Positions 40,799 to 62,747 of a DNA stretch of 64,000 nucleotides are shown here, in pieces (within the stretch, counting starts at the first letter, position 1; every line of letters begins with the position of its first letter). The stretch lies in NCBI RefSeq assembly GCF_022846255.1, contig NZ_AP025682.1. One strand, written 5' to 3'. The position numbers and the translations under genes were made by a program. The notes below the pieces were generated by a model, which was given only the letters and a program-made list of their open reading frames with translations, was not told the origin of the DNA and did not search any database. Origin of the DNA: Escherichia coli (lineage in GTDB: Bacteria > Pseudomonadota > Gammaproteobacteria > Enterobacterales > Enterobacteriaceae).

Positions 40799-41083
40799 AT
40801 GAAAATGGCCAATCCTCCCCGCCCGGGAGACATTATTCAGGAATCACTGGACGAACTTAATGTCAGCCTGCGCGAGTTTGCCAGAGCAATGGAAATTGCT
40901 CCCTCAACGGCAAGCCGATTGCTGACCGGAAAAGCAGCTTTGACGCCAGAAATGGCAATTAAACTTTCCGTGGTGATCGGCAGTTCGCCGCAAATGTGGC
41001 TGAATCTGCAAAACGCCTGGAGCCTGGCAGAGGCTGAAAAAACGGTGGATGTGTCGCGACTGCGCCGTCTGGTTACGCAATAA
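40799..41083 (+). CDS. yddM: XRE-family HTH protein (HigA-like antitoxin-type regulator)
   Basis: 94 aa from [21 protein letters not shown]…. Confidence 0.85.
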
Positions 41084-41112
41084 AAAAATGGCGCTTCTTA
41101 AAGCGCCATTTT
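41084..41112. terminator. Bidirectional terminator between convergent yddM and fdnI
   Basis: aaaaaatggcgctt-ctta-aagcgccatttt, A/T tracts on both sides. Confidence 0.75.
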
Positions 41113-41133
41113 CAGCTTAAAGTTCAAAAGAGA

Positions 41134-41787
41134 TTATATCCCTTCTTCACTCTCTTTTTTCGCTTCTGCCTTCTCGATTTCACGATACCAGCGCGGATGG
41201 TGTTTCTTCGCCCAGCGACGGCTCACCTTCCCTTCGATCATCCCTTTAATCGATCCTTTCACCCAGAATGCCATATACATATGGATCAGGATGGCGTGGA
41301 TCAGGATGATACCCGCAGCCGCGTGAATCAGCAGGCTATAACGGACAACCTGTATCGGGAAGTACTGCGCAAAGTACGGACGCCAGATAATCACCCCGGT
41401 CACCAGCAGCACGAAAATCATGCTCATGATCGACCAGAACATCATCTTTTGCCCGGCGTTGTACTTACCGACATCCGCCACTTTATGCTCATTGCCTTTC
41501 AATACTTCGACAATGTTCAACAGCCACGGAATATCTTTCTTATCCGGGATGTTGTGATGCACAAAACGCACAAACATAAACATCAGTGCGACGAAAATCG
41601 CAATGCCGAAGAACGGGTGCAAAATGCGTCCCATCTGCGGCGTACCGAAGGTTTGCGTCAGCCATTGCAGCGTCGGGAAGAAGAACGAAATCCCGGACAG
41701 CGCCACCAGGAAGAAGCAAATCACCACGGTCCAGTGACAGGCGCGATCAATAAACTTGGTGCGCACAATCATTTTCGACTTACTCAT
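41134..41787 (-). CDS. fdnI: Formate dehydrogenase-N gamma subunit (cytochrome b556)
   Basis: 217 aa from [22 protein letters not shown]…. Confidence 0.95.
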
Positions 41788-42664
41788 GATGCTCCTCCTC
41801 GTCATCGTCCACTTCCTTATTCGGGCCAATACCGATGTAGTGGAAAATCAACCCGGCAAAAGTGGCGATAAAGCCAGCCGCTGCCAGCGGTTTCAACGCG
41901 CCTTTCCACAAGTTCACCGATGTGTCGATCTTCGGATCTTTCGGCAGACCGTGATACAGCTCCGGCTGATCGGCGTGATGCAACACGTACATGACGTGCG
42001 TACCACCGACCCCTTCCGGGTTGTAGACGCCAGCATGTTCGTAACCACGCGCTTTCAGTTTCGCCACGCGCTGTTCCGCCAGCTCCATCATCTCCTTCTT
42101 GGTGCCGAAGTGGATAGCCCCGGTCGGACAGGTTTTCACACAAGCCGGTTCCTGGCCGACGCTGACGCGATCGACGCAGAGCGTGCATTTATATACCCGG
42201 TTATCCTCTTTGTTGAGGCGCGGAATATTAAACGGACACCCGGCAATGCAGTAACCACAGCCGATGCAGTTTTCCGACTGGAAATCGACAATCCCGTTAG
42301 CGTACTGAATGATTGCACCAGCAGACGGGCACGCCTTCAGGCAGCCCGGATCTTCACAGTGCATACAGCCGTCTTTACGGATCAGCCACTCCAGCTTGCC
42401 GTTCTGTTCGGTTTCGCTAAAGCGCATCACCGTCCAGGACTTGGCGCTCAGATCGGCGGGGTTATCGTAAACCCCGACGCAGTGCCCCACTTCATCACGG
42501 ATGTCGTTCCACTCCGAACACGCCACCTGACAGGCTTTACAGCCGATACAGGTGGAAACGTCGATAAGTTTTGCGACTTCTGCTTTGTAATCACGCACCT
42601 GAGAAGGCGGCGTGATGGAGTTAGTTGCGGACCTTTTGATAATGTCCTGCGTTTCCATAGCCAT
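41780..42664 (-). CDS. fdnH: Formate dehydrogenase-N beta subunit (4x[4Fe-4S])
   Basis: 294 aa with four ferredoxin-type Cys clusters and C-terminal TM anchor. Confidence 0.95.
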
Positions 42665-42676
42665 CTGTTCGCCCCC

Positions 42677-45600
42677 TTACGCCTTCTCGATGTTGACTAA
42701 GAACGCTTTATATTCCGGCGTTTGCGAGTTTGCATCACCGACATTCGGCGTCAGAGTGTTAGCGATATAACCTTTACGCGCGACACCCTCAAAGCCCCAG
42801 TGGATCGGAATACCCACCGTTTCAACCTGCTGACCGTTTACATTCAGCGGTTTCAGACGGCGCGTTACCACCGCCACCGCGCGGATAAAGCCACGCTTGC
42901 TTGAGACAGTGACACGATCGCCATTATTAATGCCTTTCGCCGCCGCCAGCGTTTCGCTGATTTCCACAAACTGTTCCGGCTGAGCAATTGCGTTGAGCAA
43001 CGCGTGCTTGGTCCAGGTGTGGAAGTGCTCGGTCAGACGATAGGTCGTACCCACATACGGGAACTGCTCTTTTTTACCCATCCGCAGCGCGTCTTGTTCA
43101 TACAGACGAACGACCGGGTTAGACACCACGTTCGGATGCAGCGGGTTAGTGCCCAGCGGCGTTTCAATCGGCTCGTAGTGTTCCGGGAACGGACCTTCCG
43201 CCATTTTGTTGATGGCAAACAGGCGTCCCATCCCTTCCGGCTGCATGATAAACGGTCCGGTTGGTGTACCTGGCGCGGCATTGCCGAAGTCCGGAATATC
43301 GTTACCCGTCCACTTGCTGCCGTTCCACTGAATCAGCATCCGTTTCGGATCCCACGGTTTACCGTTGATATCCGCCGAAGCACGGTTGTAGAGTACGCGA
43401 CGGTTGAGCGGCCACGCCCAGGCCCATCCCAGCGTATTCCCCAGACCAGATGGGTCAGAGTTATCGCGGTTAGCCATCTGGTTGCCCTGCTCTGTCCAGC
43501 TACCGGTGTAGATCCAGCAAGACGATGCGGTTGTACCGTCATCACGCAGATGCGCAAAGCTACTCAGCAACTGACCTTTCTTCGCAATCAGCACGCCATT
43601 GGCATCATAGAGATCTTCCAGCGCGTAGCCGTTGTTCTCTTTCGCTACTTCGTCAGATTGCGGTTCGTGCGGCTGCTTGTAGTTCCAGCTCATCTTCATC
43701 AGCGGTTCTACGCCTTTACCACCCTCGGCCTGGTACAGCTCGCGCAGATGATGGTAGATACCCGCCAGAATTTCGCCGTCGTTACGTGCTTCGCCCGGCG
43801 CGTCCTGACCTTTCCAGTGCCACTGCAACCAGCGACCGGAGTTAGCGATAGAACCATCTTCTTCAGCAAAGCAGGTCGAAGGCAGACGGAATACTTCAGT
43901 CTGAATAGATGCCGGATCGACATCGTTCGACTCGCCGTGGTTCTGCCAGAAGGTAGAGGTTTCAGTCACCAGCGGATCGATAACCACCATGTACTTCAGT
44001 TTGCTCAGGCAGCTCACCACTTTGTTTTTGTCCGGGAAGGACGCAACCGGGTTAAAGCCCTGGCAGAAATAACCGGTGACTTTGCCTTCGTCCATCATGT
44101 TGAAATACTTGATGACGTCGTAGGTCTGGTCCCACTTCGGCAGCCAGTCGTAGCCCCAGTTGTTCTCTTTCTGCGCGGCATCGCCGTAGAAAGATTTCAT
44201 CAGGCTAACGAAAAACTTCGGATAGTTGCTCCAGTAGTTCACCTGATCAGCCAGCGTCGCTTTCGGCGTGTTCGCTTCCAGATACGACTGCAAATCAACC
44301 TGTTTTTCTGACGGCAGCGTCAGATAACCTGGCAGGCTGGTAGAGAGCAGGCCTAAGTCAGTCAGGCCCTGAATGTTGGAGTGACCACGCAATGCGTTCA
44401 CGCCGCCACCGGCCATACCCATGTTACCGAGCAGCAACTGGATCATCGCCATCGTACGGATGTTCTGCGCACCCACGGTGTGCTGCGTCCAGCCCAGCGC
44501 GTACAGGAAGGTGGTTGTGCGATCCGGTGCGCTGGTGGAGGCCAGCACTTCACACACTTTCAGGAAGTCGGCTTTTGGCGTACCGCAAATGTTTTCTACT
44601 ACGTCCGGCGTGTAGCGGGAAACGTGCGCTTTCAGCAGATTCCATACACAGCGCGGATGAGTCAGCGTGTCATCGCGTTTCGCATAGCCGTTTTCATCGA
44701 ACTGATAGTTCCAGGACGACTTATCGTATTGACGTTTTTCAGCGTCGTAGCCGCTGAACAGACCGTCTTCGAAAGCAAAATCATCACGCACCAGCAGGCT
44801 GGCGTTGGTGTAATGCTTAACGTATTCGGCGTTGATTTTGTTGTTTTCGATCAGGTAGCGCAAAACGCCAGACAGGAACGTAATGTCCGTACCGGAACGA
44901 ATAGGTGCGTAAATATCCGCCACAGAAGCGGTACGCGTAAAACGGGGATCGACAACGATCAAGGTTGCATCGTTGTTGTTTTTCGCTTCCATCGCCCAGC
45001 GGAAACCGACGGGATGCGCTTCAGCAGCGTTACCGCCCATCACCATTACGACGTTAGCGTTTTTGATATCCACCCAGTGGTTGGTCATCGCACCGCGACC
45101 AAATGTTGGAGCAAGACTTGCTACCGTTGGTCCGTGTCAGACGCGCGCCTGGTTGTCTACCGCCAGCATCCCGAGGGAGCGGGCAAATTTTTGAGTCAGC
45201 ATCCCGGTTTCGTTGCTGGCACCGGAAGCACACAGCATACCGGTAGAAAGCCAACGGTTTACCGTTACGCCCTGCTCGTTCTTTTCAATAAAGTTAGCGT
45301 CACGGTCGGCTTTCATCAGCTTCGCAATACGGGAGAATGCTTCTTCCCAGCTAATGCGCTGCCATTTGTCAGAACCTGGCGCACGATATTCCGGGTAGCG
45401 CAGACGGTTTTCGCTGTTGACGTAATCCAGCAAACCGGCCCCTTTCGGGCACAGCGCACCACGGCTTACCGGATGATCCGGGTCACCTTCAATGTGATAA
45501 ATCGCTTCTCTGGCGTTTTTCGCGCCATCACCCAGGCTATACATCAATAGCCCGCAACCTACGGAACAGTATGTGCAGGTGTTACGGATCTCTTTCGCGC

Positions 45601-45724
45601 GTAATAATTTGTAGTTTCGCGCCTGAGCCAGTGCTTGCTTCGGGGCAAAGCCCAATGCTGCTACTGTTGTTCCCGCCATACCGCCCGCGCAGATTTTAAA
45701 AAATTGTCTGCGACTGACGTCCAT
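42677..45724 (-). CDS. fdnG: Formate dehydrogenase-N alpha subunit, selenocysteine-containing (TGA at 45137..45139 read as Sec)
   Basis: Two ORF-track pieces (195 aa and 803 aa) are in one frame separated only by TGA; context …VDNQARV-U-HGPTVASLAPTFGRGAMTNHW…; Tat signal MDVSRRQFFKICAGG at N-terminus. Confidence 0.95.
45090..45139 (-). other. Selenocysteine UGA codon plus downstream SECIS stem-loop region in fdnG mRNA
   Basis: In-frame TGA at 45137..45139 (minus strand) inside an otherwise uninterrupted 1016-codon frame; bacterial SECIS lies immediately 3' of the UGA. Confidence 0.85.
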
Positions 45725-45788
45725 TGCTTTCCTCTTTTTTCAGGGGTATTACTGCGCGAGGAAACTAACAGTAAAATTCTGAATCTTT

Positions 45789-45802
45789 TTGCGCGAAATC
45801 AA
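45789..45802 (-). promoter_or_regulatory. Putative FNR half-site pair in fdnG promoter
   Basis: TTGCG-CGAA-ATCAA, partial match to TTGAT-N4-ATCAA; position relative to the transcription start not determinable here. Confidence 0.4.
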
Positions 45803-45849
45803 AAAGAACACGTGTTTGCCACAAAATAATCCTCCTGCGCAAATTGACC

Positions 45850-45865
45850 TACCTCAATAGCGGTA
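45850..45865 (-). promoter_or_regulatory. NarL 7-2-7 heptamer pair upstream of fdnG
   Basis: TACCTCA-AT-AGCGGTA, inverted TACYYMT heptamers with 2-bp spacer, ~130 bp upstream of the fdnG start codon. Confidence 0.6.
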
Positions 45866-45956
45866 GAAAAACGCACCACTGCCTGACAGGCCAGTTAAAA
45901 AAAATGCTATAAAATTCAGCTTAATTTTTAACGGCAAGAGAGACAAAACAGCGAGC

Positions 45957-46838
45957 ATGACACGACAAAAAGCAACGCTCATAGGGCTAATAGCGATCGT
46001 CCTGTGGAGCACGATGGTAGGATTGATTCGCGGTGTCAGTGAGGGACTCGGCCCGGTCGGCGGCGCAGCTGCTATCTATTCATTAAGCGGGCTGCTGTTA
46101 ATCTTCACGGTTGGATTTCCGCGTATTCGGCAGATCCCGAAAGGCTATTTACTCGCCGGGAGTCTGTTATTCGTCAGCTATGAAATCTGTCTGGCGCTTT
46201 CCTTAGGGTATGCGGCGACCCGTCATCAGGCGATTGAAGTGGGGATGGTGAACTATCTGTGGCCCAGCCTGACAATTCTCTTTGCCATTCTGTTTAATGG
46301 TCAGAAAACCAACTGGCTGATTGTACCAGGATTATTATTAGCCCTGGTCGGCGTCTGCTGGGTGTTAGGCGGTGACAATGGGTTACATTATGATCAAATT
46401 ATTAATAATATCACCACCAGCCCATTGAGTTATTTCCTGGCGTTCATTGGGGCGTTTATCTGGGCAGCCTACTGCACAGTAACGAATAAATACGCACGCG
46501 GATTTAACGGAATTACCGTTTTTGTCCTGCTAACGGGAGCAAGTCTGTGGGTTTACTATTTTCTTACGCCACAACCAGAAATGGTATTTAGCACGCCCGT
46601 CATGATTAAACTCATCTCTGCGGCATTTACCTTAGGATTTGCTTATGCTGCATGGAATGTCGGTATATTACATGGCAACGTCACCATAATGGCGGTAGGT
46701 TCGTATTTTACGCCCGTCCTTTCCTCAGCGCTTGCAGCCGTGCTGCTCAGCGCCCCGCTGTCGTTCTCGTTCTGGCAAGGCGCGCTAATGGTCTGCGGCG
46801 GTTCCCTGCTCTGCTGGCTGGCGACACGTCGTGGCTAA
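45957..46838 (+). CDS. yddG: Aromatic amino acid exporter (DMT family)
   Basis: 293 aa, ten predicted TM segments. Confidence 0.92.
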   Translation: MTRQKATLIGLIAIVLWSTMVGLIRGVSEGLGPVGGAAAIYSLSGLLLIFTVGFPRIRQIPKGYLLAGSLLFVSYEICLALSLGYAATRHQAIEVGMVNYLWPSLTILFAILFNGQKTNWLIVPGLLLALVGVCWVLGGDNGLHYDQIINNITTSPLSYFLAFIGAFIWAAYCTVTNKYARGFNGITVFVLLTGASLWVYYFLTPQPEMVFSTPVMIKLISAAFTLGFAYAAWNVGILHGNVTIMAVGSYFTPVLSSALAAVLLSAPLSFSFWQGALMVCGGSLLCWLATRRG

Positions 46839-62427: not shown

Positions 62428-62747
62428 ATGGCTGAACACGATATTACGCCAGAAGTCGCCATTTCCAAAACACAGCGCCGCTATAAAGTCGGCTATGTCA
62501 GAGCCCGCCACATAAACAGCAAACCACGTACTACTCACGACACCCCAGCCTGAACCTTAAGGGCGACTGGCTGAAAGAGGCCGGATTTGATACCGGACGG
62601 GGTGTCACGGTGAAGATTTCGGAGGGGTGCCTGACCATCATCGCTGACAGTGACGAGGTGCAGGAACTGCGGGAGGAACTTTATCAGGTTAAACAGGTGG
62701 TTAAGGGGATGCGGAACGGGATGTTTAGTGTGCTGAACGAGAATTAA
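62428..62747 (+). pseudogene. SymE-family (type I toxin-like, AbrB-fold) gene with an apparent -1 frameshift
   Basis: Frame A gives MAEHDITPEVAISKTQRRYKVGYVRARHINSKPRTTHDTPA then TGA at 62551; frame -1 continues LNLKGDWLKEAGFDTGRGVTVKISEGCLTII…, resembling the SymE core (ITLKGQWLEAAGF…EGC) as I recall it. Confidence 0.6.

Follow-up and report, generated by a model that had tools for sequence, protein, structure and literature searches.

The in-frame TGA at codon 196 of fdnG is, with near certainty, a selenocysteine codon (Sec196) of an intact gene, recoded by means of a SECIS hairpin located immediately downstream. The gene lies on the minus strand of a 64,000-nucleotide stretch of Escherichia coli DNA (contig NZ_AP025682.1), referred to here as the window. 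This reading is carried by the continuity of the frame across the TGA, the full-length match to FdnG, the match of the adjacent RNA to the SECIS_3 family, the frozen synonymous sites around the codon and the covariation in the upper helix of the hairpin, and nothing substantive stands against it. Both the selenocysteine codon and the SECIS element of fdnG are already known, as the recoding of the UGA and the requirement for the stem-loop were established in 1991: according to Berg et al. 1991, as cited in PMC13188914 (refs 46 and 73), the opal codon encodes selenocysteine in fdnG and the stem-loop is essential.

Translation of the minus strand from nt 45724 to nt 42677 in one frame gave 1016 codons, with the TGA at codon 196 (T at 45139, G at 45138 and A at 45137) as the sole internal stop. 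The minus-strand letters at the recoding site are GCG CGC GTC TGA CAC GGA CCA ACG GTA GCA AGT and the translated context reads AVDNQARV, the stop, and then HGPTVASLAPTFGRGAMTN, so that both the strand sequence and its translation reproduce the selenocysteine context ARV-U-HGPTVAS of the original prediction. In the mechanical ORF list the gene appears as two minus-strand ORFs, 45137..45724 (195 aa) and 42677..45088 (803 aa, counted from the first ATG, M213), the second of which begins 16 codons past the TGA. The one-frame translation confirmed that no frame change occurs between them and that the open frame is broken by the TGA alone; since the frame is the same and only this codon interrupts it, the earlier description of the two ORFs as separated only by TGA is right, despite the later start of the second one. 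The 819 codons past the TGA contain no further stop and their product is 99.6% identical to the crystallised protein.

FdnG is the catalytic subunit of formate dehydrogenase-N (FDH-N), a respiratory enzyme inducible by nitrate, and its Sec196 is the molybdenum ligand; E. coli has three classical selenoprotein genes, of which fdnG is one. The N-terminus of the window protein carries the twin-arginine signal SRRQFFK. The NCBIfam profile TIGR01553 (FDH-N alpha equivalog) is matched at positions 1–194 before the TGA and 196–1009 after it, and with 1316 bits the part downstream of the TGA exceeds the cut-off of 814 by itself; membership of the family is therefore full-length, above the curated cut-off and continuous across the UGA, which falls at the Sec/Cys active-site column. 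Alignment with PDB 1kqf_A (FDH-N) pairs residues 1–1015 with residues 1–1015, the non-standard residue X at 196 of the structure standing opposite the UGA, and shows four substitutions (L342F, E353D, E366A and S666A, relative to 1kqf_A). The tetrapeptide UHGP in the window gene fits the motif UHxP listed for the formate dehydrogenase family (PMC13188914). At the nucleotide level, fdnG is 99.5% identical to the fdnG of CFT073 and Nissle, the highest value among complete E. coli genomes, and its best matches are with the gene annotated fdnG. In RefSeq the gene is annotated as one CDS and carries no pseudogene flag, so that calling it a pseudogene would be an error, as had been cautioned beforehand.

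The identity of the gene as fdnG, already proposed in the original prediction, rather than as fdoG, is supported by the scores of the gamma subunit and by the neighbouring genes. FdnI exceeds the cut-off of NF007558 (Table 1), the match spanning residues 15–231 of the mechanical fdnI ORF, whereas on NF007924, the other formate dehydrogenase gamma equivalog (cytochrome b556 subunit), it reaches 269.8 bits and misses the cut-off of 341. The order of the genes is maeA-adhP-yddM / fdnIHG / yddG-narU-narZ, with the neighbours that fdnGHI has in CFT073, K-12 and EC31; the position of fdnH is likewise the same as in these three genomes, and fdnI and fdnH share an 8-nt overlap, which E. coli has too. 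In K-12 the fdnGHI operon and its flanking genes are arranged as in the window, and the 66 nt around the UGA of K-12 fdnG (b1474) are identical to ours, so that the recoding element is without any difference. The spacer between yddM and fdnI, instead, is shorter in the window than in K-12 and CFT073. A scan of nt 40900..46100 for promoters and terminators returned no more hits than shuffled sequences, with nothing informative, and a search of the window for tRNA genes found none.

Table 1. Coordinates of the fdn genes and of the recoding element in the window (offsets in the last column are relative to the U of the UGA, +1).
Feature	Position	Strand	Details
fdnI, FDH-N gamma (cytochrome b) subunit	41134..41787	-	217 aa; NF007558, 485.8 bits, cut-off 339
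fdnH, FDH-N beta (iron-sulfur) subunit	41780..42664	-	TIGR01582, 482.5 bits, cut-off 334.7
fdnG, formate dehydrogenase-N alpha subunit	42677..45724	-	One selenoprotein CDS, 1015 residues and terminal TAA
UGA codon 196, read as selenocysteine (Sec196)	45137..45139	-	Seen directly; aligns with X196 of 1kqf_A
SECIS element, Rfam RF01989 (SECIS_3)	45084..45142	-	59 nt, -3 to +56
Upper mini-hairpin (predicted SelB-binding)	45108..45125	-	+15..+32, GG-U-AGCAA-GUC-UUGCU-CC, in the MFE structure
Lower helix of the SECIS	45094..45134	-	+6..+13 with +38..+46; asymmetric internal loop +33..+37 on the 3' strand
71-nt block, synonymous sites all frozen	45072..45142	-	-3..+68; 100% identical to K-12 fdoG

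The RNA around the TGA matches the full model (1–59) of the Rfam family SECIS_3. With 84.3 bits (gathering score 63; E = 2.2e-19) the match greatly exceeds what chance would give, and SECIS_3 is one of only two Rfam families reaching the gathering score across the whole 64-kb window. The same score of 84.3 bits was obtained for fdnG and fdoG of K-12. The fdhF-type family SECIS_2 (RF01988), whose gathering score is 70, gave only 28.8 bits and a number of non-canonical pairs that scored negatively, and the element is thus assigned to the SECIS_3 type. Counted from the U of the UGA, the span originally indicated for the recoding signal (45090..45139) is +1..+50, and it contains the whole hairpin.

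In the predicted structure the mini-hairpin starts at G15, after an 11-nt spacer from the UGA. Its upper stem of 7 bp (5 + 2) is broken by the bulged U17 (nt 45123) and closed by a 3-nt apical loop, GUC, at +23..+25, which opens with G23 (nt 45117) followed by U24 (nt 45116), all on the minus strand. The determinants described for E. coli SelB, namely U17, G23, U24 and a mini-hairpin placed 11 nt after the UGA (PMC8659212), are all present. The window element also agrees with all of the published bSECIS criteria for loop, stem, UGA-loop spacing and MFE, taken from the summary of the Zhang & Gladyshev model in PMC13188914: the hairpin is inside the ORF directly 3' of the UGA, the distance from the UGA to the apical loop is 19 nt (range 16–37 nt), and the MFE of +1..+48 is -13.8 kcal/mol (limit -7.5 kcal/mol or lower), the upper hairpin alone accounting for -6.0 kcal/mol.

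Folding of the sequence 3' of the UGA, one of the checks originally suggested, did return the hairpin, but the folding energy by itself was unconvincing (z = -1.1 to -1.4). Compared with shuffled sequences, a length of 61 nt gave z = -1.08 and one of 48 nt z = -1.44, and 21–27 of 200 shuffles folded as well, which makes the MFE a weak criterion here. Because folding energy does not discriminate in G+C-rich coding sequence, the decisive evidence was taken from the covariance-model match, together with conservation and covariation. The lower helix is entirely canonical in the MFE register of the window sequence (-13.8 kcal/mol), which is shifted by one base from the Rfam consensus register; in the latter, two pairs of the window sequence are non-canonical, A.G and A.C (-7.2 kcal/mol). 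Across 69 relatives (see below) 84.4% of the cells are paired in either register, which leaves the choice between the two ambiguous.

In the 71-nt block around the codon, 23 of 23 synonymous codons are unchanged with respect to fdoG (p about 2e-6); elsewhere the longest identical run between the two paralogues, which are 77% identical over the first 1500 nt, is 21 nt. Of 5433 E. coli records, 5432 carry the block without any difference; counted by genome, 5425 of 5426 have the TGA in this 71-nt context. Sixteen loci of non-Escherichia Enterobacterales also carry an identical block, and there identity ends exactly at +68. Flanking third codon positions were compared in five loci, from Providencia, Photorhabdus, Yersinia, Klebsiella and E. 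albertii, and are 38–58% identical in four of them and 84–94% in E. albertii. The most conserved part of fdnG is represented by the 16 codons between the TGA and the ATG at nt 45088. At a larger distance, the TGA is also kept in 104 FdnG-type loci across many phyla.

Covariation was assessed on 69 distinct FdnG-type sequences from many phyla. In the upper helix 97.7% of the cells are paired, and four of the seven pairs have compensatory changes on both sides, these changes being synonymous. Pair 18–30 occurs as GC in 52 sequences, AU in 9 and CG in 4, and pair 21–27 as AU in 42, CG in 22 and GC in 3; in both pairs the two members are synonymous third positions. The covariation score of the upper helix was 0.221 versus 0.121 in shuffles, a value reached by none of 500 shuffles, and controls obtained by sliding the structure were 27–50% paired for this helix; in all, the slid controls were 27–57% paired versus 90% observed. 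The determinants are kept among the same relatives, with U17 found in 69/69, G23 in 67/69 and U24 in 69/69 sequences.

Alignment with known selenocysteine contexts, the other check proposed at the outset, showed that the window hairpin aligns with those of fdoG and fdhF: the in-frame TGA of K-12 fdnG, fdoG and fdhF aligns with that of the window, and U17, G23 and U24 are invariant in the fdnG/fdoG/fdhF alignment. The fdoG gene of E. coli, coding for the alpha subunit of FDH-O, has selenocysteine at the same position 196 and an element of the same Rfam family, but belongs to a different operon (fdoGHI-fdhE) at a different locus. The SECIS of fdhF (FDH-H) is the experimentally dissected prototype. 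It shares with the window the ARV-U-HGP context, nearly all of the first 14 nt after the UGA, and the positions of the bulged U17, of G23 and U24 and of the GG/CC base of the upper stem. The sequence of the upper stem is, on the contrary, different, and pair 18 is swapped in a compensatory way, from U-A in fdhF to A-U in the window; the mini-hairpin is 18 nt long (15–32) in the window and 17 nt (15–31) in fdhF, and the lower stems differ.

The mRNA directly 3' of the UGA folds into the bacterial SECIS hairpin. By analogy with the E. coli systems, its upper mini-hairpin (+15..+32), with the bulged U17 and the GUC loop bearing G23 and U24, would be the binding site of the specialised elongation factor SelB. 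In its GTP-bound form, SelB would tether Sec-tRNA(Sec) where the mRNA enters the ribosome and hand it to the UGA, for which release factor 2 competes, after which translation would run through the remaining 819 codons. Binding of SelB and actual incorporation of selenium are inferred from what is established for fdhF and fdnG of E. coli and from the element being identical to the one in K-12; on the same grounds selA, selB, selC and selD are expected elsewhere in the source genome.

We considered whether the TGA could instead be an inactivating nonsense mutation, fdnG being a true pseudogene from which only a fragment of 195 residues is made. The mechanical ORF call does split the gene, and the lineage of the window shares no more than about 98% identity with any complete genome of E. 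coli, for which reason a lineage-specific decay had to be considered. Such decay is nevertheless extremely improbable, as the same TGA occurs in nearly every E. coli genome, in the three K-12 genes and in the FdnG-type loci of many phyla reported above, the downstream codons are free of stops and differ in four residues from the crystallised protein, and a structure has been solved with a non-standard residue at 196. The marks of a pseudogene, a stop missing in the orthologues and relaxed constraint downstream, do not apply: the TGA is kept and the downstream frame is intact. We give equally little credit to the presence of two genes, one for a 195-aa protein ending at the TGA and one for a second protein re-initiated at the ATG at nt 45088. 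The ORF list does contain an ATG-initiated ORF of 803 aa at that place, but one family profile and one crystallised chain cross the junction, including the 16 intervening codons (HGPTVASLAPTFGRGA); these same codons are the best conserved of the gene, and the region holds the SECIS hairpin and not a ribosome-binding site.

A different possibility is that the UGA is recoded not, or not only, as selenocysteine, either by near-cognate read-through with Trp or Cys or by Cys carried on tRNA(Sec), the conserved RNA then serving as a general stimulator of read-through. The inserted amino acid cannot be told from sequence alone, and many homologues in the formate dehydrogenase family have Cys at the selenocysteine position. 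We regard this reading too as hardly tenable, since U17, G23, U24 and the 11-nt spacing are placed as in the dissected fdhF element, the hairpin belongs to a curated SECIS family, the essentially identical protein of 1kqf_A has a non-standard residue at 196, and the opal codon of fdnG has been assigned to selenocysteine, with an essential stem-loop, in the work of Berg et al. 1991 cited above. The selenocysteine reading of codon 196 is accordingly retained.

The extent of the frozen region raises the further, rather doubtful, idea that constraint at the nucleotide level around the selenocysteine codon is wider than the known functional element. Within Enterobacterales, and considering fdnG and fdoG together, all synonymous sites from -3 to +68 are frozen and the first mismatch falls exactly at +69; of this, the mini-hairpin occupies +15..+32 alone, and the hairpin as modelled in full comes to its end near +46 to +54. 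At the three informative sites +57, +60 and +63, which lie outside the stretch used for selection and in preferred NNC codons, 16 of 16 comparisons are identical versus about 13 of 16 at comparable nearby codons. The available evidence thus points weakly to a wider constraint. The 3' flank (+47..+68) could have an additional role in selenocysteine decoding, and one candidate is an extended lower helix enclosing the UGA, in which -4..-1 could pair with +51..+54, and A3 and C4 with U48 and G47, as modelled in the MFE structure. The flank could also affect ribosome pausing or the way release factor 2 (RF2) competes for the codon, or the two paralogues could have undergone repeated gene conversion.

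The finding is correct but ordinary, and opens no new question. The data illustrate, without being a discovery, how the same nucleotides serve a dual coding, for protein and for RNA structure, with synonymous sites that are frozen across a bacterial order and covary across phyla. For annotation, the case is one of hygiene: a gene caller that takes every stop at face value would split, or turn into a pseudogene, the functional gene of a respiratory enzyme, and fdnG needs a selenocysteine translation exception at codon 196.

Translation of 45724..42677 on the minus strand in a single frame gave 1016 codons, of which codon 196 is the sole internal stop (AVDNQARV*HGPTVASLAPTFGRGAMTN); here the strand reads CAG GCG CGC GTC TGA CAC GGA CCA ACG GTA GCA AGT CTT GCT CCA ACA, directly followed by TTT GGT CGC GGT GCG ATG ACC. 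The original prediction of two minus-strand ORFs in the same frame, parted only by a TGA in the context ARV-U-HGPTVAS, was borne out: both pieces are in-frame with each other, the TGA is their sole interruption, and a frame change between them was looked for and one continuous frame found.

Features of the fdnG region and of other loci in the window
Feature	Position	Strand	Details
TGA (Sec codon)	45139..45137	-	read in sequence, codon 196
ORF piece 1	45137..45724	-	195 aa, mechanical ORF list
ORF piece 2	42677..45088	-	803 aa counted from first ATG, mechanical ORF list
SECIS_3 (Rfam RF01989)	45142..45084	-	84.3 bits, gathering score 63, E = 2.2e-19, whole model length
Lower SECIS helix	45094..45134	-	two possible registers
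100%-identical run vs K-12 fdoG	45142..45072	-	gene nt 583-653, -3..+68, 71 nt
fdnH			ORF downstream of fdnG; TIGR01582, 482.5 bits
fdnI			ORF downstream of fdnG; FDH-N gamma equivalog, 485.8 bits, cut-off 339
Convergent yddM-fdnI intergenic spacer	41084..41133		about 50 nt
STnc320-like terminator hairpin in yddM-fdnI spacer	41072..41118		sub-threshold, 28.8 bits
SymE-family type I toxin gene and antisense isrA	62428..62747 and 62499..62617	+ and -	

On profile scores, structure alignment, DNA identity and neighbourhood, the gene is fdnG and not its paralogue fdoG. The segment upstream of the TGA matched positions 1-194 of NCBIfam TIGR01553 (formate dehydrogenase-N alpha equivalog) and that downstream positions 196-1009 (1316 bits vs a cut-off of 814), and the TGA therefore fills exactly one profile column. 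With X placed at residue 196, residues 1-1015 of the product aligned to 1-1015 of PDB 1kqf_A (formate dehydrogenase, nitrate-inducible, major subunit), which also has a non-standard residue at 196, with only four differing residues. The gene is 99.5% identical in DNA to fdnG of CFT073, Nissle and related strains, and the order maeA-adhP-yddM / fdnI-fdnH-fdnG / yddG-narU-narZ is the E. coli arrangement. As for fdnI, the other formate dehydrogenase gamma model (cytochrome b556 subunit) scored 269.8 bits, missing its cut-off of 341.

SECIS_3 was one of only two Rfam families reaching the gathering score in the 64-kb window, and K-12 fdnG and K-12 fdoG score identically, whereas K-12 fdhF matches the sister family SECIS_2. 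The MFE structure comprises an 11-nt spacer, an upper mini-hairpin and a lower helix (+6..+13 paired with +38..+46, the U of UGA being +1). The 5' strand of the mini-hairpin is G15 G16, bulged U17, A18 G19 C20 A21 A22, its apical loop G23 U24 C25 and its 3' strand U26 U27 G28 C29 U30, then C31 C32. For E. coli the described SelB determinants are a mini-hairpin that begins 11 nt past the UGA, with U17 bulged and G23 and U24 in its loop (PMC8659212). They occupy the same numbered positions here as in fdhF, and the alignment of the fdnG, fdoG and fdhF contexts proposed at the outset found U17, G23 and U24 invariant. The structure lies within every published constraint of the bacterial SECIS model (upper stem of 4-16 bp, 16-37 nt between UGA and loop, MFE of -7.5 kcal/mol or lower; PMC13188914), with a UGA-to-loop spacing of 19 nt and an MFE of -13.8 kcal/mol. 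Folding 3' of the UGA, also proposed originally, did yield the hairpin, but folding energy alone was not significant (z = -1.1 to -1.4), a weak test by itself.

In the lower helix, the Rfam consensus register leaves two non-canonical pairs in the window (A.G, A.C; -7.2 kcal/mol), while a one-base shift makes all pairs canonical (-13.8 kcal/mol). In 69 relatives among the matches listed each register pairs 84.4% of cells, and which one fits goes with the third bases of two Gly codons: lineages with GGC...GGC, as in most others, fit the Rfam register, whereas the window, with the enterobacterial type GGA...GGU, favours the shifted one.

Over their first 1500 nt, window fdnG and K-12 fdoG are 77% identical, and the next longest identical run after the 71-nt one is 21 nt; within the 71-nt run 23/23 synonymous codons are unchanged, vs 56% elsewhere (p about 2e-6). 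This 71-mer recurs unaltered in 5432 of 5433 E. coli records, at a median of two places per genome (fdnG and fdoG), the whole fdnG being 95-99% identical in most E. coli genomes. An identical 59-mer occurs in at least 17 other Enterobacterales loci among the matches listed (Providencia, Photorhabdus, Yersinia, Klebsiella, Citrobacter, Enterobacter, Superficieibacter and E. albertii). Five of the 17 were checked: third codon positions after the UGA equal those of the window (18/18), and in the flanks third-position identity is 38-58% for the four non-Escherichia loci and 84-94% for E. albertii. Identity from -3 to +68 is common to fdoG and 16 loci of seven other enterobacterial genera, the first mismatch always being +69. 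In length the frozen Enterobacterales block exceeds the 59-nt Rfam model, and by a wide margin the SelB-binding mini-hairpin; its extent past the hairpin to +68 is only suggestive, because +57, +60 and +63, sites outside the selection window, are preferred NNC codons.

A DNA-pattern scan for A-R-V-TGA-H-G-P in 100,044 species genomes returned at least 120 loci, 104 of the 120 among the matches listed being of FdnG/FdoG type. In Pseudomonas, Burkholderiales, Rhodospirillales, Acidobacteria, Actinomycetota and others the nucleotides differ under an unchanged peptide, the upper helix being preserved through compensatory changes. Among the matches listed, 97.7% of upper-helix cells are paired, with pair 18-30 as GC 52, AU 9, CG 4 and GU 2, pair 21-27 as AU 42, CG 22 and GC 3, and pair 19-29 as GC 59 and UG 8; in 18-30 and 21-27 both partners fall on synonymous third bases, of Val/Ala and Ala/Leu codons respectively. 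The covariation score was reached by 0/500 shuffles, and pairing fell from 90% to 27-57% when partners were slid. U17 and U24 are each conserved in 69/69 distinct sequences, and G23 in 67/69, among the matches listed. Judged from these alignments, selection around the fdnG UGA acts on the RNA as well as on the protein.

Both G23 exceptions are Desulfovibrio-type genes (L033, L076) with a different hairpin, which retain U-HGPTV. Since they have C at loop position 23 and three broken upper-helix pairs, their SECIS hairpin must be placed differently.

A split ORF could also be read as a true pseudogene, which is excluded because the TGA and the 819 downstream codons are conserved; the compared E. 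coli records give fdnG as one CDS without a pseudogene flag, and the warning that a stop reading would wrongly make it a pseudogene was well founded. Two separate genes are likewise excluded: a single profile and a single crystallised chain span the junction and the 16 codons from the TGA to the next ATG are the most conserved of the gene. Read-through of the UGA with a residue other than Sec would be compatible with the sequence alone, but is very unlikely: it is contradicted by the specific SelB determinants in the hairpin and by the solved structure.

Elsewhere in the window, a 10-bp deletion near 62522 shifts the frame of the SymE-family gene (ORF pieces of 41 and 45 aa), which apart from this matches the intact copy in E. 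coli EC31 at 100% identity; isrA (Rfam RF01385, 96.4 bits) lies antisense over its middle, between ISAs1 transposase fragments. The yddM-fdnI spacer, about 50 nt here, measures 225 nt in CFT073 and 406 nt in K-12, and in EC31 it is interrupted by an IS200C insertion; in CFT073 a RelE/ParE-family toxin gene adjoins yddM, for which the window has no room. Across 15001..64000 gene order is that of E. coli; because identity to the best match among 5,426 complete E. coli genomes reaches only about 98.1-98.2% over 24-25 kb stretches, the source lineage seems absent from that collection; it could, for instance, be a divergent lineage of Escherichia or Shigella.

The selenoprotein frame of the window's fdnG is intact, its SECIS hairpin places the SelB determinants at the canonical distance, and the TGA is the already known Sec196 codon with its SECIS. 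Going by work on E. coli (Berg et al. 1991, refs 46 and 73 of PMC13188914; also PMC8659212), SelB-GTP-Sec-tRNA(Sec) would bind the upper hairpin and, competing with RF2, bring Sec to the UGA in the A site; selABCD would lie elsewhere in the genome, and no tRNA gene was found within the 64-kb window. The product would be full-length FdnG, with Sec196 ligating the molybdenum of the bis-MGD cofactor. The practical value of the finding lies in annotation only.
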